Shown: positions 1,858 to 58,462, counted from the stretch's first letter. The stretch is 64,000 nt of DNA from Patescibacteria group bacterium (GCA_022711335.1 JAKLFF010000001.1:131016-195015), one strand, 5' to 3'. The notes: generated by a model from the sequence alone, not told the origin. Made by a program: numbers and translations.

Positions 1858-2191
1858 CAAGCCAGTTATAGACGGCGCCTTTGTGGCTATTGTCTTTGCT
1901 ATGGGATTTTTTTTGCATTGGAAAATATATGAAATTGCCCTTTTTGCTCTGTTTATTTGGATAATTCTCAATCCGATTTTGAGCCGATACCTAGCTTTTG
2001 GGGCGATTTTCTTTTTAATCCTAACGCCGCTGTTTCTTATCGGCGGGAAAAAAATAATTGCTGACCAGCTGGCCATTTTCGCCTACTATTTTCTCATTAT
2101 GGCAGTTATGATGGGAATTTATGAATTGTGGAAAGACAAGCCAGAATCTTCAGGCGCGATTAATAATTTTAACGATAAAATCAATGAATGA
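1823..2191 (+). CDS. Small 3-4 TM membrane protein immediately upstream of GT2 (possible GtrA-like partner); overlaps the upstream gene end
   Basis: It is a 122-aa hydrophobic ORF. Its 3' end runs into the GT2 start. A GtrA-like small protein paired with a GtrB-like GT2 is a known arrangement. No diagnostic motif was seen. Confidence 0.3.
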   Translation: MAERKLLKKLVSKPVIDGAFVAIVFAMGFFLHWKIYEIALFALFIWIILNPILSRYLAFGAIFFLILTPLFLIGGKKIIADQLAIFAYYFLIMAVMMGIYELWKDKPESSGAINNFNDKINE

Positions 2192-3122
2192 GAAACCTTA
2201 TTTGTCAGTCGTCGTTCCGCTATATAACGAAGAGGGGAATGTGAGAGAGCTCCATAAAAGAATAGCGGAAGCGTGCCGCCAGCTGGAAAAAAGTTTTGAA
2301 ATAATTTTTGTCGATGATGGCTCAGAGGATAAAACTATAAAAGAATGCCAGGGACTTTCCCCGCTTAAGCTGGTTGTGCTGCGAAAGCGTTTTGGCCAGA
2401 CGGCGGGCATGGACGCGGGAATAAAAGCGGCTGTGGGTGAAATAATAATCACTATGGATGGCGATTTGCAAAACGATCCGGCTGATATAAAATTGCTCCT
2501 TGAGGAAATGGATAAGGGCTATGACGTTGTTTCCGGCTGGCGGGCCAAAAGAAAAGATCCGATCATGAAAAAAGTGTTTTCGCGCACTGCCAATCTTCTC
2601 CGGAAAATTCTGATCCAGGATAATATTCATGATTCCGGCTGTTCTTTGAAGGCCTATAAGCGAGAATGTTTTCAGGAAGTGGATCTGTTTGGCGAAATGC
2701 ACCGCTTTATTCCGGCCATTTTGGAGCTTCAGGGATATAAGGTCGGAGAAGTTGTGGTCAACCATCATCCGCGAATTCACGGAAAAACCAAATATAACTG
2801 GAAAAGGGGAATAAAGGGTTTTGTGGATATGATCTCTGTTTGGTTTTGGCGAAAATACGCCAATCGCCCGCTCCATCTTTTTGGCGGATCGGGAATATTA
2901 ATCTTTATTCTGGGGTCGGCTATTCTTGTCTGGATGGCAGTAGAAAAAATAATATTTAACGCGTCACTTTCCGAAAAAATCTGGCCGATGATGGGCGTGT
3001 TTTTGGTTATGATCGGCATCCAGCTTTTTATTTTCGGACTCCTTGCTGATATTCTCATTAAGAATTATTACAAAGAAAGAAAGCAGATGAATTATTCAGT
3101 CAAAGAGGTGATAGAGCAGTAA
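2184..3122 (+). CDS. GT2-family polyprenol-phosphate glycosyltransferase (DPM1/GtrB/ArnC-like) with two C-terminal TM helices
   Basis: Start is at MNEKPYLSVVVPLYNEEGNV, in the same frame as the longer listed ORF. GT2 motifs are present: VVPLYNE, FVDDGS, DGDLQND. Hydrophobic C-terminal helices are typical of GtrB/ArnC. Confidence 0.85.
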   Translation: MNEKPYLSVVVPLYNEEGNVRELHKRIAEACRQLEKSFEIIFVDDGSEDKTIKECQGLSPLKLVVLRKRFGQTAGMDAGIKAAVGEIIITMDGDLQNDPADIKLLLEEMDKGYDVVSGWRAKRKDPIMKKVFSRTANLLRKILIQDNIHDSGCSLKAYKRECFQEVDLFGEMHRFIPAILELQGYKVGEVVVNHHPRIHGKTKYNWKRGIKGFVDMISVWFWRKYANRPLHLFGGSGILIFILGSAILVWMAVEKIIFNASLSEKIWPMMGVFLVMIGIQLFIFGLLADILIKNYYKERKQMNYSVKEVIEQ

Positions 3123-3135
3123 CTAACTAATTTTT

Positions 3136-3252
3136 TTACCTCCTCTCCCTTAGGGAGAGGATGCCCAAAGGGCAGGAGAGGGATAAAACATAAATTTTTC
3201 CATCATCCGGTCCCGCCAGGGCGGGACCACCTTCTCCCTAAGGGAGAAGGGG
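3136..3252. repeat. Composite palindromic intergenic element, copy 1 (hairpins CCTCTCCC-TTAG-GGAGAGG, GGTCCCGCC-AGGG-CGGGACC, CCTTCTCCC-TAAG-GGAGAAGG)
   Basis: Three GC-rich perfect hairpins sit in an AT-rich spacer between the GT2 stop and the ugd start. A reverse-complement arrangement of the same hairpins occurs at 43024-43132. Confidence 0.6.
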
Positions 3253-3264
3253 ATAATTTATTTT

Positions 3265-4572
3265 ATGAAAATTGCAATTATTGGCACTGGTTATGTCGGA
3301 CTCGTCAGCGGGACTTGTTTTTCCGAGTTTGGACACAACGTAGTCTGTGTTGACAAAGACGAGAAAAAAATCGAAGCCCTGAAAAACGGCCAGATCCCGA
3401 TTTATGAGCCGGGACTCGATGAATTGGTCAAAAGCAATGTGGAAGCCAACCGGCTTATTTTTACTCTTGACACGGCCTTTGCCATAAAAGACGCGGATGC
3501 AGTTTTCATCGCGGTCGGAACGCCGACTTCAAGGCGCGGAGACGGATACGCTGATCTCAGCTACGTTTACGCGGCAGCCAAAGAGTTGGCCGGCCATTTG
3601 AACGGATATACGGTAATTGTGGACAAAAGCACTGTTCCGGTCGGAACAGCCAGGCAGGTAAAAAGAATCATAAAGGGGACGAATCCCAAGGCTGATTTCG
3701 ACATGGCATCAAACCCTGAGTTTTTGCGCGAAGGGGCGGCAATCTCCGACTTTATGAAGCCGGATCGGGTAGTGGTTGGGGTGGAAAGCAAAAAAGCCGA
3801 AGAAGTCTTGAGGAATATATACAAGCCCTTGTATCTCATTGAAACGCCTATGGTGGTGACTAATTTGGAAACAGCGGAGCTGATCAAGTACGCCTCAAAT
3901 GCGTTTCTGGCGGTCAAAATAAGCTATATAAATGATATGGCCAATCTTTGCGAAAAAGTCGGCGCCGATATCGTGGCTTTGGCCAAAGGCATGGGGCTGG
4001 ATAACCGCATCGGATCGAAATTTTTGCATGCCGGACCGGGATACGGCGGCTCATGCTTTCCTAAAGACACGCTGGCTCTTTCCAAAACCGCCCAGGAACA
4101 CGGTGCGGGTCTTCGCCTCGTCGAGTCGGCCATTGAGATAAATTCCGCCCAAAAAGCGCGGATGGTGAAAAAAATCAGAGAGGCGCTAGGAGGCAGTGAA
4201 GCAGGAAAAACAATCGCGTGCCTCGGACTTACTTTTAAGCCGGAAACTGACGATATGCGCCAAGCTCAGTCGGTCGCTATTCTTCCGGCGCTTGTTGACA
4301 AAGGCGCCCGCGTTCGCGCGCATGATCCGCATGGCATGGCTGAAGCCAAAAAAATGATGCCGGAAGTTGAATACGCGGATGATGCTTATGGCGCCTGCAA
4401 AGACGCCGACGCAGTCATCCTTATGACGGAATGGAACGAATATAGGGCGCTTGATCTTGACCGCTTGGCTGAAACTATGAAAGGGAAAATATTTATCGAT
4501 CTTAGGAATGTCTACGAACCGGAAGTTTTGAGAGAAAAAGGTTTCCAATATTTTGGGGTGGGGAGGAATTGA
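3265..4572 (+). CDS. ugd: UDP-glucose 6-dehydrogenase (nucleotide-sugar dehydrogenase family)
   Basis: N-terminal Rossmann motif MKIAIIGTGYVGLV. Catalytic Cys region GGSCFPKDT. Full-length family architecture, 435 aa. Confidence 0.9.
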   Translation: MKIAIIGTGYVGLVSGTCFSEFGHNVVCVDKDEKKIEALKNGQIPIYEPGLDELVKSNVEANRLIFTLDTAFAIKDADAVFIAVGTPTSRRGDGYADLSYVYAAAKELAGHLNGYTVIVDKSTVPVGTARQVKRIIKGTNPKADFDMASNPEFLREGAAISDFMKPDRVVVGVESKKAEEVLRNIYKPLYLIETPMVVTNLETAELIKYASNAFLAVKISYINDMANLCEKVGADIVALAKGMGLDNRIGSKFLHAGPGYGGSCFPKDTLALSKTAQEHGAGLRLVESAIEINSAQKARMVKKIREALGGSEAGKTIACLGLTFKPETDDMRQAQSVAILPALVDKGARVRAHDPHGMAEAKKMMPEVEYADDAYGACKDADAVILMTEWNEYRALDLDRLAETMKGKIFIDLRNVYEPEVLREKGFQYFGVGRN

Positions 4573-4599
4573 CAGTTTAGTTTTTAAATATCGAAAAAA

Positions 4600-7440
4600 A
4601 TGAAAAAGGAAATTCTAAGCAAAAAAATAATTTTCCTAAATCTTTTCATATTCTTGTTTTTTGCTTTTTCCTTTAATCTTGTTCAGGCTTCCCAAAATAT
4701 TCCTGATATTTGCGAGTCGGGAATTGAAGAAAAATTCCAATTCCTTTGTGAAAAAGATCAGCTTCTCGATCCCCGGGAACTTTTTGGCTTTGAGGAAAAA
4801 AGCGATAATAAGGCAAAAAAAGAAAGCTTTGGCGTAATGGCGGTTTCAAGTATCGAAGGCAAATCGGATGGCAGCGATGAAATCATAATCGGCGGAAATG
4901 AAGAATGGAATGAAAATAAAGTTTTTGACCATAAAATAATTACGATCGAACCGGGAGCCCAGCTGGAAATCAAAGCGGGCGTGACAATTACCCTTAAGGA
5001 TTCAATAATTAATGTTGAAGGGAAATTTATCACCAGTGGAACCAAAGAAAAAACGGTTATCATTAAATCATCCGGAGAAGAAAGCGATAGCGGATTCTCG
5101 ATCATTTCCGATTTGGACGATAAAGATGGCCAGATAAATGAAATACTGATGAAAAATACCGATATAAGCGGCAACAATAACGTATTGGGAGCTGTCATAA
5201 CTAAAAAGACCAAGCTTGATATGGAAGAATGCAGTATCCATGACAATGTGATTGGGGTAGTGATGGCGGAAAATGACTCCAATGAAAAGAAAGTCAATCG
5301 TTCTAAATTTTATGGCAACCAGATTGACGCGGTGAGCTATTACGAACTGGGCGGAGAAACTCTGGCTCCGGATTTCCGGTATAACTGGTGGGGAGAAAAC
5401 AGTTCAAAAATAGAGCAATATTGTAATGACGAATATGGATGTATTGCGTATCATGATAAAATTTTTGGACTTATCAATATAAGGCCTTGGTTTGTTTCGG
5501 AGGATTTTTTCGATCCAGTAGTGATTGTGCCGGGGATTATGGGGTCGGAAGAAAAAGATGGAGCTTGGAAAATAGATCCGGTTTATCATATTTATGATGA
5601 TCTTTATAATGAATTTATAGAAGAAGGTTTCGGTCCGGAAAAAAATTTGTTTACTTTTCCTTATGAGTGGCGAAATAGCAACCGAGATAACGCGCTCTTG
5701 CTTCGGGATAAGATTGCAGAAATTAAACAAGCCACTGGTCTTCCAAAAGTTGACGTTGTAGCACATTCCATGGGCGGTCTTCTGGCAAGAGAATATATTG
5801 AATCAGATTATTACCAGGATGATGTTAGTCAGTTGATTACGCTGGGAACGCCGCAAAACGGCGCTCCGGAGGCTTACATAAAATGGGAAGCAGGGGAATT
5901 TACCTTTTCTTTTGTAGATATGTATCTTAAACACAAATTTTCTCAGGAAGCCGAAGAGAACGGATATGACGATATTTTTCACTATATCCGCCAAAGACCG
6001 ATGACTTCTGTTCAAGAACTTCTACCCAACTACAGTTATCTTTATGAAGCTCTTGAAGATGATATACAGAGAACTTATCCAAATAACTATCCAATCAATG
6101 AGTTTTTGGATAACCTTAATTCCGAAGAAAGAAAAGAAAAACTCAAAAAAGTTTTGCTTTATAAAATTGTCGGAAATGTAGAAGACGATGAAAGCACTAT
6201 TTCCAGTTTCAGCGTGTTGGATGGACATATGGGAGAATATTGGGAACATGGCTATCCTCAAGGCTTTGAAATTCCTATTGGTGATAGAGGTATAAAATGG
6301 AAAAGGGGAGACAGAACAGTTCCATTTGAATCAGCCAGGAGTGAGAACATTCCAGCAGAAGAATCGATTGAGATAAATGCAGCTCATCGCGAATTGCCGA
6401 CCGAAGCCCAGAAAAATGTTTTAGGAATTTTGACGGCAAAAAGTCCAGGAAAAGAAACGAGGCGCAATCCTATAAAAGATCTGCTTTTTATTTCAGTTTA
6501 TTCGCCAGTTGATATACAAATAGAGAATTCTGAAGGCAAAAAAGTGGGAAAAAATTTTGCAACTGGAAACGAGATAAATGAAATAGAAGACGCCTACTAT
6601 AGCGGAGCAGGCGCGCTGAATGAGTTTCTGACCATTCCCATTTTCGGATCAGACGAAAAAGATTTCAAAATTATCACCCAAGGCACTGAAGAAGGCGTGT
6701 ATAAAATTGAGATATCCAGGATAACCGAAAGCGAAGGCTCCAGCGAAGCCAAAGAAATCAACGCGGCTATTTCAGGAACAGCCGTTCTCAATCAGGAAGA
6801 AAGCGTAGATTTGAAGGTTACTGAAAACGAAATAATAGTGGAATCAGACAAAACCCCTCCGGAAATTTCTATTGTTTCTCCCGAAGAAAACAAAACATAT
6901 CTCAACAGCGGAACCATCCCAGTGAATTATGGAATAAGCGATAATAAATCACCGAAAGAAAAAATAACCGATGAAGCATATCTGGACGAGGATATTTTAG
7001 AAAATAAAACCATAGACTTGGCTTTTTTGAATCTCGGAAAGCATAAAATAAAAATAATTGCCAAAGACGAAGCCGGAAACATCGGGCAGAAAGAAATCAG
7101 TTTCACAACAGAAACATCGGTGGATGCCATGATAAACAACACAGCTTATTACTACAGGCTGGGAATGATGAGAAAACAGGATAAAACTGTTTTGACAGCT
7201 CATCTTGAAATCATCAGGCAGCTTCAGGAAATGATAAAAATGATTGAAAAAAACAGATTTATGAAAAACAGAACCAAGGAAATGCTGGTTGCGAATCTCA
7301 AAAGACAAATCAATTTCTATCTGGACTGGCTATCATTCTACGCCAAAATGAGATCAAATCCGAATACGAAAAATGGCATTAACCCAGAAGTCGGGAAACT
7401 GCTAATTGAGAATTTCAATTTTTTGAAATATAATTTTTAA
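4600..7440 (+). CDS. Secreted multidomain protein: signal peptide, beta-helix-like N-terminal region, alpha/beta-hydrolase lipase/esterase-like domain (PGIMGS...VAHSMGGLLAREY), Ig-like/helical C-terminal region
   Basis: N-terminal signal peptide (FLFFAFSFNLVQASQ). Nucleophile-elbow pentapeptide GHSMG variant (AHSMGG) with an upstream oxyanion-like PGIMGS. Repetitive beta-strand-rich N-terminal part. 946 aa. Confidence 0.65.
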   Translation: MKKEILSKKIIFLNLFIFLFFAFSFNLVQASQNIPDICESGIEEKFQFLCEKDQLLDPRELFGFEEKSDNKAKKESFGVMAVSSIEGKSDGSDEIIIGGNEEWNENKVFDHKIITIEPGAQLEIKAGVTITLKDSIINVEGKFITSGTKEKTVIIKSSGEESDSGFSIISDLDDKDGQINEILMKNTDISGNNNVLGAVITKKTKLDMEECSIHDNVIGVVMAENDSNEKKVNRSKFYGNQIDAVSYYELGGETLAPDFRYNWWGENSSKIEQYCNDEYGCIAYHDKIFGLINIRPWFVSEDFFDPVVIVPGIMGSEEKDGAWKIDPVYHIYDDLYNEFIEEGFGPEKNLFTFPYEWRNSNRDNALLLRDKIAEIKQATGLPKVDVVAHSMGGLLAREYIESDYYQDDVSQLITLGTPQNGAPEAYIKWEAGEFTFSFVDMYLKHKFSQEAEENGYDDIFHYIRQRPMTSVQELLPNYSYLYEALEDDIQRTYPNNYPINEFLDNLNSEERKEKLKKVLLYKIVGNVEDDESTISSFSVLDGHMGEYWEHGYPQGFEIPIGDRGIKWKRGDRTVPFESARSENIPAEESIEINAAHRELPTEAQKNVLGILTAKSPGKETRRNPIKDLLFISVYSPVDIQIENSEGKKVGKNFATGNEINEIEDAYYSGAGALNEFLTIPIFGSDEKDFKIITQGTEEGVYKIEISRITESEGSSEAKEINAAISGTAVLNQEESVDLKVTENEIIVESDKTPPEISIVSPEENKTYLNSGTIPVNYGISDNKSPKEKITDEAYLDEDILENKTIDLAFLNLGKHKIKIIAKDEAGNIGQKEISFTTETSVDAMINNTAYYYRLGMMRKQDKTVLTAHLEIIRQLQEMIKMIEKNRFMKNRTKEMLVANLKRQINFYLDWLSFYAKMRSNPNTKNGINPEVGKLLIENFNFLKYNF

Positions 7441-7490
7441 TTTAAAACGCTTTTTCTTAAGAATTTAGGAAAAAGTGAAAAAACAAAAAT

Positions 7491-7769
7491 ATGTTTTCAA
7501 TGCCTGATTTGGATTTGCAAATCTCACTTTCTCTATTTGCAATCTCTTTTGTTGTTGGATTGATAACCTGGGCGATTTCCAGAAAGTGGTTCTTGGGATT
7601 GGTGGTTTTTTCTATTTTGGGAAATCTTAGTTTTTTGGGAAATATAGGTTCTTTTATGTTTAAATCATATGGGATAGAATGGCTTCAATATTTTTCCCTT
7701 TTTATCTGGCCGCTAATAAATATCTTTTTAATTATCAAATATCGAAAGCAGAGGAAAGGAAAAGCGTAA
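7491..7769 (+). CDS. Small 3-TM membrane protein, divergent copy 1 of a tandem triplicated family
   Basis: 92 aa. Same length class, TM topology and C-terminal basic tail (RKQRKGKA) as the next two genes. The upstream leader ...acaaaaatatgtttt... is shared. Confidence 0.55.
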   Translation: MFSMPDLDLQISLSLFAISFVVGLITWAISRKWFLGLVVFSILGNLSFLGNIGSFMFKSYGIEWLQYFSLFIWPLINIFLIIKYRKQRKGKA

Positions 7770-7779
7770 AAACAAAAGT

Positions 7780-8070
7780 ATGTTTTGGTCAAGTCCGAGT
7801 AGGGATTTAAATGTAATAATTTTTTTGGTAATTATTGCATTAATTATTTCAGTTGCTGTCTACTTTAAAACAAAGAAAAAAATATTAACATTATTTATTC
7901 TTTCTCTTCTAGGAAATTTAATTTTTTGGTCAAATTCAGGATCAACATTTTTTGACATCTATCATCTCAAGGGAGTTGTTAAATTTACACTCTGGTATTG
8001 GCCGTGGATAAATGTGGGACTCCTGGTTATTTTGCTGGTAAATTATTTTAGGAATAGGGGAAAAGCGTAA
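7780..8070 (+). CDS. Small 3-TM membrane protein, copy 2 of tandem family
   Basis: 96 aa, roughly 70% identical to copy 3 (MFWSS..RDLNVIIFLVI...VVKFTLWYWPWINVGLL...NYFRN.GK). It is preceded by the same aaaagcgtaaaaacaaaa leader. Confidence 0.7.
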   Translation: MFWSSPSRDLNVIIFLVIIALIISVAVYFKTKKKILTLFILSLLGNLIFWSNSGSTFFDIYHLKGVVKFTLWYWPWINVGLLVILLVNYFRNRGKA

Positions 8071-8080
8071 AAACAAAAAT

Positions 8081-8383
8081 ATGTTTTGGTCAAGCTCGAT
8101 CAGAGACTTAAATGTCATAATCTTTCTGGTTATTGTTGCAATGATTATTTCAATCTTTGTTTATTTTAAAACAAAAAATAAATTTGCTTCGCTGGTCATT
8201 TTCTCTATTTTGGGAAATTTAATTTTTTGGGATAATTCTGGATCGAGGTTACTTAATATACCTGATTTTAAATGGGTTGTGAAATTTACGCTTTGGTATT
8301 GGCCGTGGATAAATGTGGGACTTCTGGCTATTTTAGCGGTTAATTATTTTAGAAATAAAGGGAAAAATCAGAACTTAGGATAA
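8081..8383 (+). CDS. Small 3-TM membrane protein, copy 3 of tandem family
   Basis: 100 aa. The duplicated unit of about 300 bp includes the leader/RBS region. Confidence 0.7.
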   Translation: MFWSSSIRDLNVIIFLVIVAMIISIFVYFKTKNKFASLVIFSILGNLIFWDNSGSRLLNIPDFKWVVKFTLWYWPWINVGLLAILAVNYFRNKGKNQNLG

Positions 8384-10565: not shown

Positions 10566-12377
10566 TTATTTTAGGGCTTGCGCGCCTGAAGACAACTTTT
10601 TCCAGGTAAGAATTTGTGAAATTTGGATAGCCTGTTCGGAAGGCTGTTTTTTTGAAAGATCTTGAGCGTCTAAAGTGGAAGATTGGGGTTTTGGGGAAAG
10701 ATAGAGGACATAAAGAGAGCCGAAGTCTTTATTTTCCGCAATATCAAATGCAGCTCCAAGCATTTTGGTGTCTTTGGCTTTTTTCGAAAGGCTGCTCGAT
10801 ATTAGGAAATAATTCCCTTTGCGATAAATATCCTTGTCTATATCAGGATCATAGCTGAAATAATCATAGGGAATATTTTTTTTATCGAAGAAATACCAAA
10901 AAACCGGATCAAGCTCATGAATGCTTTTTAGATAAACCGGAAAGCCATTGTTCTCATATTTCTCGGCCATATAATCCAAAATCATAAGTTCTTGCTGGAG
11001 CGTTATTCTAGAATTGTCGGGAAAAACGTCTTCAGTTTCAAATCGCGCTTTTTTGTCGTAAGGCGAATTTTTCAGCTGCTTGAAATTTTCAAAAATTTTT
11101 CCAATATTGGAAAATAAAAGAAACAGGATTATCAGTGAGAATATCAAATAACGGAGAGGATTTTTCATGGAAAATACAAACTCTAGAATCAGCCCCAAAA
11201 ATATCATTGCTAGCGGAGCGGAGATTAGAAAAAATCGGGGATAGATATAGAAACCGTCATAAGTTATTAAAAGAAGGAAAAGGAAGGTGGCGATGAGCCA
11301 CAAAGCACAAATTGTCAGAAAATCTTTTTTTTGCTGATTTTTTTCCCGGGTCAGGCGAAAGGCAAGCGCGGATATTCCCGATATCCAAAAAAGAAAGCCG
11401 GCGATCCGGAGCGGCGCATCGTCGGAGCAGGTTTTGCAGAGAATTCCGGCGTCATATCCCTTGAGCCGTTTTCCGTTTATTGAATCTATGCCGCTTATGA
11501 CCAGAAAATATTCCAGCGCGTTATATCTTGCGTCCTGGAATATTTTTTCGCCCAAATTTTTTGAATTTCCCGCGTCTTCCTTATTTTCCTTTAAGCCTGC
11601 TTCCTTAAGCCCCAATTTTTCAAGAAAATAGCTGAAATTTTGGCCGTGGGTTTTTATATCGCTTATGATCATAGGAGAATAAAGAACAAGAAGAACAGTG
11701 AAAGCCGCGGCCCAAATTTTTAGATTAAATGAAGGCCGTTTGATGAGCAGAAAAATAATAAAAACCAGGGGAATGCTGAAAAAAGAAATAAAATGGATTT
11801 GTGAGGCTATTCCGGCGAGAGCAACTGATGCCAGGAACCAGGCGTTTTTTTTCGGCTCATTTTTCAAAACGCTGCGAAGGAGGCAGTAGAATGCCGCCAA
11901 AGCCAAAAAAGGCAGGACATTCGGACTCCATGAAAACCGGGAATAAGTTACCAAATAAAGTGAAACCGAAAAGATAGCAAAGATGCCGAGTGAAATCGGA
12001 ACAGAAAAATATTTTTTTGAAAAAAAATAGAAAAGAGGAAGGGAAAGGATTGATAGAATTAGAACTTGCATGGCATGTCCGGCGGGATTATTTCCGAAAA
12101 TTTTGGCGCTCAGATATTCCATATAATAAAAAGCCGGGCCAAGCCGAAGCGATCGCCCGCCTCCGGCCGTAGGTCCGAGAAGAGGGAGGTTGGAAATCCC
12201 GCTTTCCACAGCGGGAGAGACCAAAAGAGTGTCGTAAGTCTGATCAATTTCAAAATGGAGCCAGTCGGAAAAATGATAAGAACGCAAAAAAATCCCTATT
12301 AAAAAGATAATAAGGAAAATAGCGAGCGCCAGCTTATTTTTCCCGGCTTTTTCCATTTGTGATTGAAAAAAGTTCAT
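10566..12377 (-). CDS. GT-C fold membrane glycosyltransferase, ArnT/PMT (GT39/GT83)-like, paralog 1
   Basis: Shared paralog motifs FLRSYHFSDWLHFEIDQ and LGPxxxxxxLRLGPAFYY near the N-terminus. About 11 TM helices plus a C-terminal soluble domain. Confidence 0.75.
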   Translation of the reverse strand: MNFFQSQMEKAGKNKLALAIFLIIFLIGIFLRSYHFSDWLHFEIDQTYDTLLVSPAVESGISNLPLLGPTAGGGRSLRLGPAFYYMEYLSAKIFGNNPAGHAMQVLILSILSLPLFYFFSKKYFSVPISLGIFAIFSVSLYLVTYSRFSWSPNVLPFLALAAFYCLLRSVLKNEPKKNAWFLASVALAGIASQIHFISFFSIPLVFIIFLLIKRPSFNLKIWAAAFTVLLVLYSPMIISDIKTHGQNFSYFLEKLGLKEAGLKENKEDAGNSKNLGEKIFQDARYNALEYFLVISGIDSINGKRLKGYDAGILCKTCSDDAPLRIAGFLFWISGISALAFRLTREKNQQKKDFLTICALWLIATFLFLLLITYDGFYIYPRFFLISAPLAMIFLGLILEFVFSMKNPLRYLIFSLIILFLLFSNIGKIFENFKQLKNSPYDKKARFETEDVFPDNSRITLQQELMILDYMAEKYENNGFPVYLKSIHELDPVFWYFFDKKNIPYDYFSYDPDIDKDIYRKGNYFLISSSLSKKAKDTKMLGAAFDIAENKDFGSLYVLYLSPKPQSSTLDAQDLSKKQPSEQAIQISQILTWKKLSSGAQALK

Positions 12378-20488: not shown

Positions 20489-22288
20489 TTGATGAAAAAT
20501 AAAGCCCTTGATTTTTTTAGAAAAAGAAAAAATTTCCTCATTGTTTCTTTTGCTGTTATTTTTCTTATTGGCGTCTTTTTACGCGCCTATCATTTTTCTG
20601 ACTGGCTGCATTTTGAGCTGGATCAATCAAGAGATGCCAAGGTCATTGATTTGGCTGTTGAGGAAGGGCCGTCCAATTTGCCCCTTCTTGGGCCCAAAGC
20701 AGCCGGAACTTTCCTGCGTCTCGGGCCGGCTTTTTATTATTTCAAATATCTGAGTGCGCTGGTTTTTGGCAATACGCCTTCCGGGGTGGCAGTGATTATT
20801 ATGATTTTTGGAATTTTGGCTATCCCGGTTTTTTATTTATTCGTAAAAAGGTATTTTAGCGAGTCAATATCTTTGGGCCTAATGCTTATTTTTTCTGTTT
20901 CTCTTTTTCTGGTTATGTATTCAAGATTTTCCTGGAATCCTAATCCTTTGCCGCTGTTTACGCTTTTGACTTTTTATTTTCTGCTTCGGGCAGTGGATAC
21001 AAACGAAAGCGAAAAGAAAAGGGGAATTTGGCTGGTGGCTTTTTCAGTATCATTGGCGATTGCTACCCAGTTTCATTTTTTGGCTTTTGTGGGCGTGCCG
21101 GCCATATCTTTTCTGTTTCTAGTTGTTAAGAGGCCTAAAATAAAAATAAAATACTGGCTTTTTTCCATTGCGGCGATCGTTTTTCTCTATTTGCCGGCAA
21201 TAGTCAATGATTTTGAAACCGGCGGCGATAATATCGGCCAGTTTTTGGAAGTCGCCCGGGGGAAATCGGAAAAAAGCGAGCATGATATCGTTGAAAAGAT
21301 CGTAAAAAGCTACAATGAAAATTCCTTGGGATACGCAACAGTTTTATTTGGAATTGAAAAAAGGGAGCTTCCCCGGGTTATTTTTGAAAAAAATAAGCTG
21401 TTTAGTTTTATATGCGATGCGGATTGCAAAAGCGAGTTGGGGATGGGAATTTTTTCGCTTCTGTTTTTCACTTTGGGCGCGGTTTTGCTTGTCGCAAATG
21501 CCGTGAAAGAAAAAGATCCTAAAAGAAAAGATTTTTTAATCCTGGCATCTATCTGGTTCTTTGTTGTTTTGGGGCTTTATGTTCCCATAGCTTATAATAT
21601 TTCTCCCCGCTTTTTCCTTTTAGCGGCGGCTATTCCGTTTATCTTTTTGGGATTTGTGTTTGAATTTCTGGAGATTACCATAAAAAACAAAAAAATAAGT
21701 CCGATGTTAACAATAGTTCTTATTTTAGCTGCCAGCGGCTATAATCTTTGGAAAATAAATCAGCGCTTTTGGCAGTTGCAAAATGCTTCTACTCAATCTT
21801 TTAAAGTGGAAACAGACAGGATTCTCAAGGAAAAAACGAGAGTAACGCTAGAACAGCAAAATAAAATAATAAATTACATTTTATTAATACAAAAAAGCAA
21901 CGGCTATCCGGTTTATCTCAACAGCGATCCGGAATACCGAAGATCATTTCTTTACCATCTTGATAGAAATGATATTCCCAGAGATGACTTCAGAAATGCG
22001 ACAAATAGCGATAAAGTTTATGAACATGGAAATTATTTTTTGATTTACCCAACGTTTTCCAACTGGAAAAAAGATCTGGATAAATACGCAGGAAAATTCG
22101 ACCTTGCGAATCAGAAAGAATTTGGAACTCTGACGCTTTTTGAACTCAAGCCAAGGCTAGAGGCTGTCAACGCCGTAGAGCAGGATTTTTCAAAAGACAA
22201 GTCGAAAGGATCATCCGGAACGCCTAAAAGATTTAAGTGGGATGAAATATTTAATGAAAATAGTGATGATGAAAATACTAATGATTAG
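20489..22288 (+). CDS. GT-C ArnT/PMT-like membrane glycosyltransferase, paralog 4 (divergently transcribed)
   Basis: FLRAYHFSDWLHFELDQSRD and LGPKAAGTFLRLGPAFYY. Acidic C-terminal tail. Confidence 0.75.
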   Translation: MMKNKALDFFRKRKNFLIVSFAVIFLIGVFLRAYHFSDWLHFELDQSRDAKVIDLAVEEGPSNLPLLGPKAAGTFLRLGPAFYYFKYLSALVFGNTPSGVAVIIMIFGILAIPVFYLFVKRYFSESISLGLMLIFSVSLFLVMYSRFSWNPNPLPLFTLLTFYFLLRAVDTNESEKKRGIWLVAFSVSLAIATQFHFLAFVGVPAISFLFLVVKRPKIKIKYWLFSIAAIVFLYLPAIVNDFETGGDNIGQFLEVARGKSEKSEHDIVEKIVKSYNENSLGYATVLFGIEKRELPRVIFEKNKLFSFICDADCKSELGMGIFSLLFFTLGAVLLVANAVKEKDPKRKDFLILASIWFFVVLGLYVPIAYNISPRFFLLAAAIPFIFLGFVFEFLEITIKNKKISPMLTIVLILAASGYNLWKINQRFWQLQNASTQSFKVETDRILKEKTRVTLEQQNKIINYILLIQKSNGYPVYLNSDPEYRRSFLYHLDRNDIPRDDFRNATNSDKVYEHGNYFLIYPTFSNWKKDLDKYAGKFDLANQKEFGTLTLFELKPRLEAVNAVEQDFSKDKSKGSSGTPKRFKWDEIFNENSDDENTND

Positions 22289-25734: not shown

Positions 25735-26409
25735 ATGAAAAAGTTGTTTGTTGTAGCTTTGGCAGTTTTGGCAATCGCAAGCTTGAGCGCGCAAGCGTTC
25801 GCTTCCCAGCAGGGTGTAAATGCTATTGTGGGAGTAAGTCAGGCTTATTTTAAAGACACTCCTTCTGTCAAGGATCTTGGTAATGATAATTACTCTGTTG
25901 CTGGACCAGGTGGCGTTCAGAAAATCAAATTCACCAACTCGACCATCAATAGGATGAATTTGGCTCTGAATAATCCAGGCTCCAGCGAAAGTCTCGACAC
26001 TATGTGTCCTGCTCAAGCGAACCAGCTGCGCTTGGCTATGAAAGCACCGGTTAAAAAACCAGTTACCGTAGCTCCTGTGAAGCCCTGCGAAGGTTGCAAA
26101 GAGCAGGAAGGCACTTGGAAGGGTCGGCCGCCCGCAGGAACTGTAACAGCCACTATCAAAAACGGCCAGTATGGCCAGTTTGAGATAGTGTATGATTCTA
26201 AAAAGCGATGCCCTGCAGTCCAGCAGTGGCGGAAAACCCCGAATGATTTTCCAAGCGAGCACAAAAGGCTATGGTTCAAGGACAAAACTATGGCAGAACA
26301 ATGGCTCGCCAATGCCCTGACTCCTGAACAGCTGGAGCAGAGACTGTCTGGCGCTAGCTACAAAGCCGCCAGCATCGGTTATCAAAAGTGGGTGGACCTG
26401 GCTTTATAG
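25735..26409 (+). CDS. Secreted hypothetical protein (signal peptide ...LSAQAFAS, related to that of 23586-24038)
   Basis: 224 aa. AAGGAGG RBS. 4 Cys (CPAQ, CEGC, CPAV). Confidence 0.6.
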   Translation: MKKLFVVALAVLAIASLSAQAFASQQGVNAIVGVSQAYFKDTPSVKDLGNDNYSVAGPGGVQKIKFTNSTINRMNLALNNPGSSESLDTMCPAQANQLRLAMKAPVKKPVTVAPVKPCEGCKEQEGTWKGRPPAGTVTATIKNGQYGQFEIVYDSKKRCPAVQQWRKTPNDFPSEHKRLWFKDKTMAEQWLANALTPEQLEQRLSGASYKAASIGYQKWVDLAL

Positions 26410-26430
26410 CCAATTCTGCCCCCAACCAAA

Positions 26431-26476
26431 AACCCCGATTCTTGTCTCAACGAGAGGATCGGGGTTTTGTTTATTT
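26431..26476 (+). terminator. Rho-independent terminator
   Basis: AACCCCGAT-N18-ATCGGGGTT followed by TTTTGTTTATTT. Confidence 0.6.
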
Positions 26477-26509
26477 ATATGGCAGAAGCAAGGTTGTACC
26501 TTGCTCCTT

Positions 26510-27028
26510 TTAGTTTACAATCCGAAAATCATCAATATCATCGACTTTCAGCTCGCATTCGGTATTAGCCGAAGACCAATACCAATATTCCGGTTGCGCA
26601 ACATAATTTTTCCTGACCGGATTATTGTAAATATATTGCAATTTTTGATCAAAAAAATTTTGCGATTCAATCAGTTTAGGCATGTTGGTTTTTTCCCAAA
26701 ACTCATATTTTCCATCTTTATCTAAAAATATTTTTAAAACATTTGGTTCGGTTGTTTTTATGTTCCTGTGCAATTCTTTAGATGTAAATCTTTTAAAATC
26801 ACGAATGAATCCAGAAACATCCAATGAATAAGTGATTAAATGAATATGATTGAGCATAAAAACAAAACCAAAAAGTTTTAGCCCTTTGTTATCCTGGCAA
26901 TATTTGATTGAACTGGCCAATATATTCCAGCGGTATTGTCGGTCAAAAAGATAGTACAAATTTTTAACGCTAAAAGTAAGAAAATATACGGAATTATTGA
27001 ATTGCTTCGGTACTCTTACGGATGGCAT
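26510..27028 (-). CDS. REP-associated tyrosine transposase (RAYT; IS200-like Y1 HuH transposase family)
   Basis: HuH motif LNHIHLI. C-terminal YIYNNPVRKNYVAQPEYWYWSS matches the NPV..GLV..PE.Y.WSS catalytic-Tyr region of the RAYT/Transposase_17 family. About 170 aa. Confidence 0.75.
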   Translation of the reverse strand: MPSVRVPKQFNNSVYFLTFSVKNLYYLFDRQYRWNILASSIKYCQDNKGLKLFGFVFMLNHIHLITYSLDVSGFIRDFKRFTSKELHRNIKTTEPNVLKIFLDKDGKYEFWEKTNMPKLIESQNFFDQKLQYIYNNPVRKNYVAQPEYWYWSSANTECELKVDDIDDFRIVN

Positions 27029-42454: not shown

Positions 42455-43003
42455 TTAATACTTAAAAAAGTAACTCCACCATTTTTTATAAATCGGGATA
42501 TCTTCAGCTTCAATGTCATTTTTTTGCGCCATATTCGCAACCTCGCTCTTTTCTCGCCCGGACAAGCCTGGCTTGACAATTACCATATTTTCATCAGGAT
42601 TTTGAAAACTTAGCTTATCCCGCACTTCTTTTTCCTGGAAATCGCGGCTTTCAAAATAGGCTATTTTTTCCTTGAGGTCCAGGTTGTTTTTTTCGATTCT
42701 GGCAGCTTCTTCCTCAAGAGCGGAAATTTCTTTTTGAATCTGGTTTTTTTTGTATATAACTTTAGATGCTGAATAAGCCACATAAGCCAGTATAATCAGG
42801 CCCAGCAACAAAAAAAACTTAATAAAACGCATTTTTCCGCCTACTTTTTCTCCTTTTTGCATTTTTTTCATTATTTTAGAGTGAGAAGCGGTGCAACGGT
42901 AAAGGCTACCATAGCCAAAACGGCTACAAGAGAAATTGCTATCCAGATTTTTCTCATCCTTTTGTTGCGTTTTTGAATATAGCTCATGAGGATATAATAA
43001 CAA
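42455..43003 (-). CDS. Septum-formation-initiator (FtsB/DivIC)-like protein: TM helix + coiled coil; true start probably internal (MRFIKFF...)
   Basis: Single TM (FIKFFLLLGLIILAYVAY) followed by a heptad-rich segment (EISALEEEAARIEKNNLDLKEKIAYFE). The N-terminal about 55 aa of the listed ORF are probably not translated. Confidence 0.4.
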   Translation of the reverse strand: MLLYPHELYSKTQQKDEKNLDSNFSCSRFGYGSLYRCTASHSKIMKKMQKGEKVGGKMRFIKFFLLLGLIILAYVAYSASKVIYKKNQIQKEISALEEEAARIEKNNLDLKEKIAYFESRDFQEKEVRDKLSFQNPDENMVIVKPGLSGREKSEVANMAQKNDIEAEDIPIYKKWWSYFFKY

Positions 43004-43023
43004 AATAAATACTAAAAAACAAT

Positions 43024-43132
43024 CCCCTTCTCCCTTAGGGAGAAGGTAGTTCGCCTAGGCGAGCCGGATGAGGGAGCTACTTGCGAAGTTTCTTCCCTCT
43101 CCTGTCTTTCAGACATCCTCTCCCCAAGGGAG
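43024..43132. repeat. Composite palindromic intergenic element, copy 2 (inverted orientation relative to copy 1)
   Basis: Hairpins CCTTCTCCC-TTAG-GGAGAAGG (exact reverse complement of the copy-1 hairpin), TCGCCTAGGCGA, TCCCTCTCC (reverse complement of GGAGAGGGA in copy 1), and CCTCTCCCC-AA-GGGAGAGG. It lies between the lepA 3' end and the next gene. Confidence 0.6.
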
Positions 43133-43147
43133 AGGAAGACAACAAAT

Positions 43148-45022
43148 TCACTTTTTCAGTACGGCTAAAAAGGCTTCTCCGGGAATACTTACTCTTCCGA
43201 TGTTTTTCATCTTTTTTTTGCCTTTTTTCTGCTTTTCCAGAAGTTTTTTCTTCCTGGATACATCTCCGCCGTACAGCTTGGCTATAACATCTTTTCTGAA
43301 GGCCTTAATGGTTTCCCTGGCGATCACTTTTCCGCCAATAGCGGCTTGCAAGGCAATTTGGAAATTTTGTCTTGGAATTGCATTCTTCAGCTTTCCGACT
43401 ATCCTCTTGCCCTCACTGAAAGCCCTTTCTTTTGGTACAATCCTTGAAAAAGCATCTATTTTTTCTTCAGCTACCAGAATATCCAATTTAATGAGGTCAT
43501 AAGGCCGCCAATCCTTTATTTCATAATTTAGAGAAGCGTATCCGGACGATGCGCTTTTGATGTCATCATGGAGATTGGTGATAATATCAGTCAAGGGACA
43601 GATGAATTTCAAAATCATTCTTTCTCCATCCAGATATTCCGTATCCAAATACTGAGCTCTTGTATTTTTCATTACTTCCATAATGGCGCCAAGATAGCTT
43701 GAAGGAGAAATGATTTCTAAATTAGCATAGGGCTCGGAAATTTCTTCAATTTCCGACGGATCAGGAAGCTCCGAAGGGGAATAAATCAGCATTTCTCCGA
43801 TTTTATTTTTTAATTTTACCCTATATACCACGCTTGGAGTTGTAACAGTCGGCGTAATTTCAAATTCCCGTTCAAGCCTGGATTGAATTATTTCCAGGTG
43901 CAAAAGCCCTAAAAATCCGCACCGAAATCCCCGTCCCAATGCCAAATTGCTTTCCGGTTCGAAAGTAAACGCTGCGTCGTTCAGCTTTAATTTATCAAGC
44001 GCATCGCGCATGAAGTTATAATCGTCGCCTTCAATCGGATAAAAAGATGCATAAACCATTGGTTTAACTTCCTTATATCCCGGCAATGGAATAGCACCTC
44101 TATTCCTGTCTGAAATTGTATCCCCGACGCGGCAATCCGCAACGCTTCGGAGGCCTGTCGCAATATATCCGATTTCTCCAGCTGACAAAACCTGGCTTTT
44201 CACAAGCTGCGGCTTGAAATGGCCCACTTCAATGACATCGCACGTCGCATTTGCCGCCAGCATAGAAATTTTATCTTCAGCTTTAATTTCTCCGTCAATA
44301 ATCCGCACATGAGCTAAAACGCCCTTATAGATATCGTATTTGGAGTCGAAAATGAGAGCCTGTAGCGTCTTTTTTGCGTCTCCTCGGGGAGCTGGTATAA
44401 TTTCCACAATTTTTTCCAAAAGTTTTTCCACTCCCTGCCCTGTTTTTCCAGAAACTTCCAGGATTTCTTCTTCTTTGCATCCCAGAATATGGATTATTTC
44501 CCGTTTTGTTTTTTTTATATTGGCATTAGGAAGGTCGATTTTGTTCACTACCGGGATAATTTCCAAATTATTATCAATCGCTTGATAAAGGTTAGCCAAA
44601 GTCTGGGCTTGGACGCCCTTAGTTGCATCAACCAGCAATACCGCGCCTTCAACTGCTGCAAGAGACCGCGAAACTTCATAGCCGAAATCCACATGCCCTG
44701 GAGTATCAATTAGATTCAGAATATACTCACCACTGTCATTCCCGCGAAAGCGGGAATCCTGTTTTAAATTTTGATCATTTATATTTTGAATTTGTTTTGG
44801 ATTTAGGATTTCGGACTTCGGATTTTTCGCATGGTAAACCATGCGAACCGGCTGCATTTTGATCGTTATCCCCCGCTCCCGTTCCAAATCCATGGTATCC
44901 AGAAGCTGTTCTTTCATCTTGCGTTTTTCAACTGTTCCGGTCATTTCCAACATCCGGTCGGCTAAGGTCGATTTTCCGTGGTCAATATGAGCCAAAATTG
45001 CAAAGTTTCTTAAATTATCCAT
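43148..45022 (-). CDS. lepA: Elongation factor 4 (LepA)
   Basis: G-domain NFAILAHIDHGKSTL and DTPGHVDF. LepA-specific C-terminal domain with KLYGGDVSRKKKLLEKQKKGKKKMK. It contains an unusual 36-codon insertion (see findings). Confidence 0.9.
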   Translation of the reverse strand: MDNLRNFAILAHIDHGKSTLADRMLEMTGTVEKRKMKEQLLDTMDLERERGITIKMQPVRMVYHAKNPKSEILNPKQIQNINDQNLKQDSRFRGNDSGEYILNLIDTPGHVDFGYEVSRSLAAVEGAVLLVDATKGVQAQTLANLYQAIDNNLEIIPVVNKIDLPNANIKKTKREIIHILGCKEEEILEVSGKTGQGVEKLLEKIVEIIPAPRGDAKKTLQALIFDSKYDIYKGVLAHVRIIDGEIKAEDKISMLAANATCDVIEVGHFKPQLVKSQVLSAGEIGYIATGLRSVADCRVGDTISDRNRGAIPLPGYKEVKPMVYASFYPIEGDDYNFMRDALDKLKLNDAAFTFEPESNLALGRGFRCGFLGLLHLEIIQSRLEREFEITPTVTTPSVVYRVKLKNKIGEMLIYSPSELPDPSEIEEISEPYANLEIISPSSYLGAIMEVMKNTRAQYLDTEYLDGERMILKFICPLTDIITNLHDDIKSASSGYASLNYEIKDWRPYDLIKLDILVAEEKIDAFSRIVPKERAFSEGKRIVGKLKNAIPRQNFQIALQAAIGGKVIARETIKAFRKDVIAKLYGGDVSRKKKLLEKQKKGKKKMKNIGRVSIPGEAFLAVLKK

Positions 45023-58012: not shown

Positions 58013-58124
58013 GTTTTTCTCTATAAATTACGAATAAGCTAGCGCTCTACGAACATACAAACTACGAATTGAATAATTCATATATTCGTAAAAATTTATA
58101 ATTCGTAGAGATTTCAGATATTTA

Positions 58125-58462
58125 TCAAGGCAAATCTATAAGCCGGATTCTGTCGGGAACGATCATTTATCTTGTCTCGACGTTACCGTCGGGATCGCGC
58201 GGCATTTCCCGTTTTTAGCTAAAAAAACAGGACACAGCCTTGCACTCACGCAGGGATTTGGCCGTTTCACCTTCGATGTTTCCATTGAAGCTTATCCCTT
58301 GCGGGATACTTTTATTATCTCTAATAAAAGCGTCTCTGTTCGCACCCCTCGAGTTGCCCCGGATGGGAATTACCCACTACGCGTGCCAATGCACAGCACT
58401 GGCCGAGTGTCCGGACTTTCCTATCCATAATAAATTACGGATTGATCGCTCAATTTGCCTTG
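58125..58462 (-). ncRNA. rnpB: RNase P RNA (bacterial type A-like)
   Basis: Minus-strand read: P1 CAAGGCAAAT...ATTTGCCTTG pairing at the ends. P4 5' strand GGAAAGTCCGGAC. GGTGAAA motif. P4 3' strand ACAGAATCCGGCTTA. GC-rich island of about 338 nt with no credible ORF. Confidence 0.85.

Follow-up and report, generated by a model that had tools for sequence, protein, structure and literature searches.

Two inverted BoxC-type repeats in a Patescibacteria genome as candidate gene-less relics of a DUF559 cassette

The BoxC repeats of E. coli, later renamed PIT elements and then TMECO "intrastrand triplex motif" repeats, have been catalogued since the 1990s (Bachellier et al. 1990s; Hoyne/Maher 2000; Holder et al. 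2015, PMC4666352), and the same motif is also the HPG1 quadruplex-hairpin motif (Kaplan et al. 2016, PMC5100583). It was reported that E. coli MG1655 contains 23 copies, always intergenic, with five inverted pairs that always join type A with type B, and that 262 proteobacterial genomes contain 3610 copies. The isolated strand alone was found to form a triplex, in vivo footprinting did not support stable triplexes, and the loci were linked to higher local variability (PMC4666352). PIT elements showed no promoter or terminator activity in E. coli, as summarized in PMC4666352. The repeats have been given triplex, G-quadruplex and "instability" readings, but no origin, partner gene or function.

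Here, we analyzed a stretch of 64,000 nucleotides (the window) from a Patescibacteria group bacterium (GCA_022711335.1 JAKLFF010000001.1:131016-195015). An initial annotation of this sequence had claimed a composite palindromic element of about 110 to 120 bp in two inverted copies 40 kb apart (3136-3252 and 43024-43132), both intergenic at gene 3' ends, with hairpins A, B and C in the first copy, and had interpreted it as BIME/MITE-like, either mobile or a recombination-spread terminator. We found that the observation is correct. When the reverse complement of 43010-43150 was aligned with 3120-3270, the two copies shared 84% mean column identity, and a repeat search of the window returned the same pair. 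The hairpin pattern CTYCTCCCYWRGGGAGRAG, with up to 2 mismatches, occurred four times in the window, only at these two loci, and never in shuffled sequences. A scan for perfect polypyrimidine/polypurine hairpins found the same four and none in 50 shuffles.

Hairpins A, B and C were all present, with counterparts in copy 2, but three features had been missed. The first is a fourth small hairpin, GCCCaaaGGGC, whose counterpart in copy 2 reads GTCTgaaAGAC on the - strand and differs by compensatory changes. The second is an equivalent of hairpin B in copy 2, GTTCGCCtaGGCGAGC. The third is that the "spacer motif" GGAGAGGG(A) is not a spacer but the mirror image of the purine arm of hairpin A. The features are collected in Table 1.

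Table 1. Positions of the two element copies, their parts and other features noted in the window
Position	Strand	Feature	Sequence	Remarks
3137-3254	+	Copy 1, whole element (118 nt)		Read from half a to half c on the + strand; between the GT2 glycosyltransferase gene (2121-3122, +) and the UDP-glucose dehydrogenase gene (3265-4572, +)
3141-3161	+	Copy 1, left terminal hairpin (type a; hairpin A)	TCCTCTCCC-tta-GGGAGAGGA	
3163-3173	+	Copy 1, small hairpin P2 in loop 2	GCCC-aaa-GGGC	
3174-3182	+	Copy 1, purine third block	AGGAGAGGG	Exact mirror of the purine arm GGGAGAGGA (mirror 0 mismatches, direct repeat 2)
3183-3199	+	Copy 1, short A+T-rich interior		Position where full-length relatives carry the DUF559 ORF
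3200-3208	+	Copy 1, pyrimidine block	CCATCATCC	Its complement GGATGATGG is the third block of the right half (1 mismatch to the mirror of GGGAGAAGG)
3209-3228	+	Copy 1, small hairpin P4 (hairpin B)	GGTCCCGCC-ag-GGCGGGACC	
3230-3250	+	Copy 1, right terminal hairpin (type c; hairpin C)	CCTTCTCCC-taa-GGGAGAAGG	Followed by GGAT
43022-43140	-	Copy 2, whole element (119 nt)		Read from half a to half c on the - strand; between lepA (43148-45022, -) and a small DivIC-like gene (42455-42987, -; ATG start taken from the orthologues' MSYIQKRNKRMRKIW)
43116-43136	-	Copy 2, left terminal hairpin (type a)	TCCTCTCCC-ttg-GGGAGAGGA	Sequence on the - strand
43104-43114	-	Copy 2, small hairpin P2	GTCT-gaa-AGAC	Sequence on the - strand
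43095-43103	-	Copy 2, third block	AGGAGAGGG	Sequence on the - strand; exact mirror of GGGAGAGGA
43066-43074	+	Copy 2, third block of the right half	GGATGAGGG	Mirror of GGGAGAAGG with T in place of A; on the - strand it reads CCCTCATCC
43049-43064	-	Copy 2, small hairpin P4	GTTCGCC-ta-GGCGAGC	Sequence on the + strand
43026-43046	-	Copy 2, right terminal hairpin (type c)	CCTTCTCCC-NNN-GGGAGAAGG	
7457-8383		Three tandem units of about 301 nt		Three paralogous small membrane-protein genes (92, 96 and 100 aa), not a non-coding repeat
10566-12377	-	Membrane protein of about 600 aa		40% identical to its paralogue at 20489-22288; the two lie in inverted orientation around a block of - strand genes, which explains a 70-nt inverted repeat (12241-12310 / 20556-20625)
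20489-22288	+	Membrane protein of about 600 aa		Paralogue of 10566-12377
~26000-27000		Switch of + strand GC skew from positive (+0.06 to +0.15) to negative (-0.04 to -0.19)		Cumulative-skew maximum; could be a replication terminus; genes mostly on the - strand to the right
58123-58461	-	Bacterial RNase P RNA class A (139 bits)		The only Rfam match in the window

The host is a CPR bacterium (Candidatus Moranbacteria) with a GC content of 38.7%. Its named LepA relatives, at 71-80% identity, are Candidatus Moranbacteria / Parcubacteria, and a contig with the same genes is JGI 3300010429 Ga0116241_10000279. Each copy fills the gap between two co-directional genes, in the same orientation relative to them. 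Copies 1 and 2 begin 18 and 11 nt, respectively, after the upstream stop codon. Copy 1 ends 14 nt before the next start codon, while copy 2 ends about 34 nt before the ATG taken from the orthologues, or 22 nt before an upstream TTG. Since the GC skew changes sign at about 26 kb, both copies also agree in orientation relative to the skew, and transcription-linked orientation was not separable from replication-linked orientation in the window.

To further explore the anatomy of the element, we compared its halves. Each copy is an inverted pair of two unlike halves. The left half (type a) is TCCTCTCCC-NNN-GGGAGAGGA, followed by T, the small hairpin P2 and AGGAGAGGG. The right half (type c), read on the other strand, is CCTTCTCCC-NNN-GGGAGAAGG, followed by the small hairpin P4 and GGATGAGGG (GGATGATGG in copy 1). 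The last block of each half is the mirror image of the purine arm of the hairpin, with T tolerated opposite A. All four halves in the window have such a mirror match with 0 or 1 mismatch, against 1-2 mismatches for a direct repeat, and thereby fit the three-block architecture of the BoxC/PIT/TMECO repeats (pyrimidine arm, complementary purine arm, and a second purine block able to lie antiparallel on the purine arm). Whether the isolated strand folds into a triplex was not measured, as the folding programs used model only Watson-Crick and G-U pairs.

We then scanned 262 kb of related CPR DNA for perfect polypyrimidine/polypurine hairpins and found 61. About 57 of them have a mirror copy of the purine arm with 0 or 1 mismatch, 12-23 nt away, on exactly one side. 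This holds for the three commonest arm types, which each have their own mirror block (GGGAGAGGA with AGGAGAGGG; GGGAGAAGG with GGATGAGGG; GGGAGAGA with AGAGAGGG), while the direct-repeat reading fits worse, typically with 1-2 mismatches. Loop 2 is always T followed by a stem-loop. The 34 distinct halves carry 21 distinct loop-2 stems, nearly all of 4-9 bp, so the structure is kept while the sequence varies. Pairs are always unlike (a with c, or a with b), with their third blocks facing inward.

RNA folding had been proposed in the initial annotation as a check on the element. The minimum-free-energy folds of the two copies are very stable (z = -7.4 and -5.1), but both strands fold about equally well, with z between -5 and -8, and can pair either locally or end to end. 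Folding therefore does not identify a functional strand, and P4 of copy 2 even pairs better on the antisense strand. The G.U against A.C asymmetry of the central stem follows automatically from unlike halves plus the mirror rule, so it is not independent evidence for an RNA strand. Searches of Rfam 15, at gathering and at permissive thresholds, gave no credible match at either locus; the best sub-threshold hit was HgcC at 24 bits against a gathering score of 50, on the opposite strand. A terminator role is not supported, as only weak consensus matches were seen. Copy 2 has a 9-bp stem followed by GGAUUGUUUU, copy 1 gives only a 5-bp alternative stem, related copies are followed by A-rich or mixed tails, and the counts found are no higher than in shuffles, which leaves the intrinsic-terminator question unanswered at the sequence level. 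There is no consistent U-tract after the last hairpin.

The initial annotation had stated that its reading would fail if no further copies existed and the similarity was limited to generic GC-rich terminator stems. Further copies were found. A solo right half (CCTCATCC - GCCCtttGGGC - CCTTCTCCTTataAAGGAGAAGG - GGAT) lies in the same genome just outside the window, about 5.3 kb upstream of copy 1 (locus L001, 4620-4672; L numbers denote loci retrieved in this analysis), in frame inside a called 879-aa gene, where it adds ...SALWAPSPYKGEGDIG... to the protein. There are dozens of copies in related CPR contigs. A scan of GTDB genomes for two such hairpins 60-90 nt apart gave at least 118 loci, from Verrucomicrobiota, Planctomycetota, Acidobacteriota, Vampirovibrionales, Chloroflexota, Bacteroidota and many Proteobacteria, often with many copies per genome, and one viral contig also has a pair. 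On the other hand, a blastn search of E. coli genomes with the element, a short query of low complexity, found no match. Some loci of Verrucomicrobiae MFD02416.bin.2.131 (among them L007, L011, L037, L040, L061, L097 and L102) and of Klebsiella (L022 and L079) have a second arrangement, with the third blocks facing outward (TCACCC...hairpin - core of about 70 nt - hairpin...GGGTGA). The cores are loosely similar across phyla and could be a separate module or the junction between adjacent elements, two possibilities that we did not separate.

A full-text literature search with the core words led to the BoxC/PIT/TMECO papers. The E. coli MG1655 hrpB-mrcB BoxC pair has the same order of parts as the window element. 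However, the strict TMECO consensus 5'-CCCTCNCCC N3-6 GGGNGAGGG N3 GGGNGAGGG-3' (PMC4666352) has no match in the window, where the arms are tCCTCTCCC/GGGAGAGGa and CCTTCTCCC/GGGAGAAGG and loop 2 is 12-21 nt long. The window form is a variant in which loop 2 carries a hairpin in place of the 3-nt loop, and the same variant occurs in Hyphomicrobium, Planctomycetaceae and Malonomonas loci (L115, L106, L027, L038). A canonical four-tract G-quadruplex is not conserved in this form, since the window halves have only two G3 tracts each, while the mirror rule is conserved.

To search for longer relatives of the element, we scanned metagenomes with a pattern for the left half, which gave 22 low-GC loci, and extracted whole pairs from these. 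In a related CPR contig (L128), the a-type and c-type termini lie 480 nt apart and enclose a complete 119-aa ORF (7008-7367). This ORF matches Pfam DUF559 at E = 4e-38, and its only match among solved structures is PDB 3hrl, an "endonuclease-like protein," at 1e-20. DUF559, a predicted nuclease domain, belongs with Vsr in the PD-(D/E)XK superfamily, in a clade that also includes a group I intron homing endonuclease (PMC3424549). Another locus (L137) keeps a degenerate C-terminal remnant of the ORF (tblastn 2e-17), and loci L133, L134, L138 and L122 keep its 5' and 3' ends. An alignment shows a nested internal-deletion series of 480 > 315 (with the ORF remnant) > 200/195 > 164 > 149 > 114 nt, ending at the window copies, with both termini conserved throughout. 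The full-length L128 and the deletion form L133 are on the same contig. In a further locus (L129, element at 4273-5057), an IS200-type Y1 transposase gene (4433-4891, -) with its own end hairpins is inserted in the interior of an element, while the orthologous loci L141 and L142 have the uninterrupted element.

To test the association independently, we retrieved 80 DUF559-like loci from viral contigs by protein similarity alone. Of the 20 best, which are full-length small DUF559 genes, 17 have such hairpins within 300 nt, mostly on both sides, with 37 hairpins in 10.5 kb (3.54/kb) against 6 in 38.5 kb (0.16/kb) further away. The 60 weaker, partial matches have none in 185 kb. Viral contigs may be a biased sample, and 3 of the 20 loci have no perfect hairpin. 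The dominant order is hairpin, small hairpin, G block, ORF, C block, small hairpin, hairpin, although three loci (L149, L151, L159) have the third blocks facing outward. Four further CPR DUF559 genes, picked by protein similarity only, all have both termini, and three of their contigs come from sibling samples of the window's sample. These four sit directly downstream of a co-directional gene, and including L128, all five full copies lie downstream of a co-directional gene.

The same arrangement was found in a Pseudanabaenales cyanobacterium (L120), while in a Dehalococcoidia genome (L036) the left terminus is the same and the 3' side is C-rich blocks followed by a hairpin. In E. coli K-12, the 3' end of the DUF559 gene ycjD runs into a degenerate hairpin, followed by a duplicated fragment of its own 3' end and then by TMECO #9, 170 nt downstream. 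This is the fabI (envM) region, where BoxC was reportedly first described. In CPR cassettes (L231, L128, L232), the left third block (GGAGAGGG / GGGGTGAGGG) sits 9-13 nt before the ATG of the DUF559 gene, where a ribosome-binding site would be, and the pyrimidine arm resembles the anti-Shine-Dalgarno sequence. This could couple folding to translation of the nuclease, but the spacing does not hold in other phyla.

We then examined whether the element is present at orthologous sites. Two relatives with the same lepA - divIC - PPIase - ferredoxin - HtrA - ClpB order (85-86% LepA identity) have an A+T-rich lepA-divIC gap of similar length with no element, and the 27 kb read from them holds no such hairpin. 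In one of them (L144, 5900-6010), the gap holds a different, A+T-rich inverted repeat (acaaatctacaaatc ... gatttgtagattcgt). In E. coli, 3536 of 5426 complete genomes cover at least 80% of the hrpB-mrcB query, and the sampled genomes with lower coverage lack about 103 nt and the pair. One strain (07_3337) has collapsed the pair to a single hairpin by deletion between the two terminal hairpins. The BoxC pair of this gap is thus polymorphic within the species, with a full pair, no pair and a collapsed form (L146, 248-330; L228-L230). No target-site duplication was evident in the window flanks or between the filled and empty E. coli alleles, but the flanks of the latter have diverged and no close empty site was available for the window loci, so the comparison speaks neither way.

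Taken together, these results suggest, with reasonable though not full confidence, that the two window copies are ORF-less, MITE-like relics of a small selfish cassette. In this view, the full cassette of about 480 nt would consist of a left terminus, a 113-119-aa DUF559 gene and a right terminus made of the same three parts inverted but of a different sequence type. It would sit directly downstream of a host gene in the sense orientation and then lose its ORF by internal deletion while both structured termini persist. The analysis itself established the anatomy, the mirror rule, the family link to BoxC, the physical association with DUF559, the nested deletion series and the presence/absence at orthologous sites. 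That the DUF559 nuclease recognizes or cuts the folded termini (hairpin or triplex in single-stranded DNA) and so drives spread is only an inference, drawn from the strict mirror rule and by analogy with RAYT acting on REP/REPIN; DUF559 is not a known transposase, and no activity on these sequences has been shown. Whether the short forms are still mobilized in trans or decayed where they sit is likewise a matter of inference, although the different interiors of the two window copies are compatible with independent decay. No DUF559 gene lies in the window, and the source genome was not read as a whole. The window copies keep only 17-19 nt of interior, so their descent from an ORF-bearing form rests on homology of the termini and on the graded series, not on an ORF remnant of their own. 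In addition, E. coli K-12 has 23 TMECO copies but one DUF559 gene, which has only a degenerate terminus. The interpretation in the initial annotation is thus partly supported: one composite, intergenic, multi-copy element with MITE-like behavior is borne out, while the BIME label and the terminator idea are not.

It is also possible, but unlikely, that the short pair is the intact target site of a free-standing DUF559 homing endonuclease gene, which inserts into the center of pre-existing pairs and splits them into two flanks, while the pairs themselves spread by some other process. The ORF always sits exactly between the two third blocks, the Vsr/DUF559 clade includes a homing endonuclease, and degenerate ORFs such as that of L137 fit a cycle of invasion, decay and loss. 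However, this does not explain how the ORF-less pairs reach many unrelated intergenic sites. The intermediate forms that keep the 5' and 3' ends of the ORF point to deletion from a full copy rather than to an empty site, and the interiors of short copies differ from locus to locus.

A similarly doubtful alternative is a host-serving RNA element that protects or terminates the upstream transcript (a 3'-end hairpin cluster or intercistronic stabilizer, as proposed for REP/BIME), copied around by recombination and only incidentally near DUF559. The position of both window copies just after a stop codon in the sense orientation, the very stable folds and the weak terminator-like match in copy 2 are in its favor. 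In CPR contigs, a-type halves follow a co-directional gene in 15 cases against 5, and b/c halves precede the next gene's start in 9 against 1. On the other hand, this bias is equally explained by the cassette's own sense insertion, as seen in the five full copies, and other phyla show no bias (14 co-directional against 10, with rough ORF calls), so RNA-strand selection is not general. The equal folding of both strands, the lack of a consistent U-tract and of an Rfam match, the reported inactivity of PIT elements in E. coli and the absence of the element from the orthologous gaps of relatives also argue against it.

Finally, the reading of Holder et al. 2015 and Kaplan et al. 2016 that the motif is simply non-B DNA (an intrastrand triplex or G-quadruplex motif), which arises and persists because it promotes local genome instability, is very unlikely as a full account without a mobile-element origin, since, although the mirror rule is what a purine-motif triplex needs and the reported triplex formation, the variability of TMECO loci and the hairpin-to-hairpin collapse in one E. 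coli strain fit it, the specific sequence and not just purine content is shared across phyla, the DUF559 association and the deletion series are left unexplained, a four-tract G-quadruplex is not conserved in the window and in vivo footprinting did not support stable triplexes.

A wider reading, which we consider tentative and somewhat less likely than not, is that BoxC/PIT/TMECO-type repeats from E. coli to cyanobacteria, Chloroflexi and CPR bacteria are the non-autonomous partners and relics of a so far unrecognized class of mobile element, whose only gene is a DUF559 Vsr-like nuclease acting on triplex-capable, hairpin-plus-mirror-block termini. This would be a second REP/RAYT-like system built on a PD-(D/E)XK nuclease instead of an HUH transposase. 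A consistent physical link would give one of the commonest "unknown function" nuclease domains in bacteria a candidate substrate and would give the repeats a candidate parent. While the repeat family is already known, the loop-2-hairpin variant, its presence in CPR and many non-proteobacterial phyla and above all the DUF559 partnership were not found in any paper searched. The DUF559 link appears to be unreported, as literature searches on DUF559, ycjD or Vsr-like proteins together with MITE/REPIN, which did not cover subscription journals, found no paper linking DUF559 to these repeats. The results extend the family to CPR/Patescibacteria and many other phyla, and the mirror-block covariation constrains any structural model.

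Compared with the BoxC/PIT/TMECO repeats of E. coli and other Proteobacteria, the window element has the parts in the same order (pyrimidine arm, loop, purine arm, loop 2, second purine block) and the same core words (CCCTCTCCC / GGGAGAGGG / GGGTGAGGG-like). Both are intergenic and multi-copy, and both occur as inverted pairs of two unlike types with the third blocks inside. The window element differs in that loop 2 is T plus a 4-9-bp hairpin (12-21 nt) instead of 3 nt, the arms end in T/A, the third block is AGGAGAGGG or GGATGAGGG, and the host is a low-GC CPR bacterium, whereas TMECO was reported from proteobacterial genomes. No gene was associated with the family in the papers we read, whereas here it is tied to DUF559.

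Free-standing and intron-borne homing endonuclease genes, including the Vsr-like I-Bth0305I lineage (cited in PMC3424549), likewise have a small nuclease ORF as the only gene, a patchy presence at conserved sites and frequent degenerate or deleted copies. However, homing copies go to one cognate site, while the copies described here sit in many unrelated intergenic gaps and carry their own structured inverted termini. REP/REPIN elements with their RAYT (TnpA_REP) genes, and BIMEs, are also short GC-rich extragenic palindromes in many copies, often as inverted doublets and in some cases between co-directional genes, with a single-copy gene flanked by the repeats in inverted orientation and short forms outnumbering the gene-bearing form. 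In contrast, no GTAG or CGTC tag of a 20-40-nt REP unit lies beside any of the window hairpins, each unit has a third, mirror-repeat block, no mobilization has been shown, and the flanked gene is a predicted PD-(D/E)XK Vsr-like nuclease, not an HUH/Y1 transposase; the one Y1 transposase seen is the IS200-type insertion in L129. Classical bacterial MITEs (e.g., Correia, RUP, Nezha) and IS200/IS605-derived palindrome-associated elements share with this element the inverted termini, the derivation by internal deletion from a gene-bearing parent, a length of 100-200 nt and an intergenic position, whereas here the parent encodes no recognized transposase and the termini are self-complementary hairpins with a triplex-type third block.
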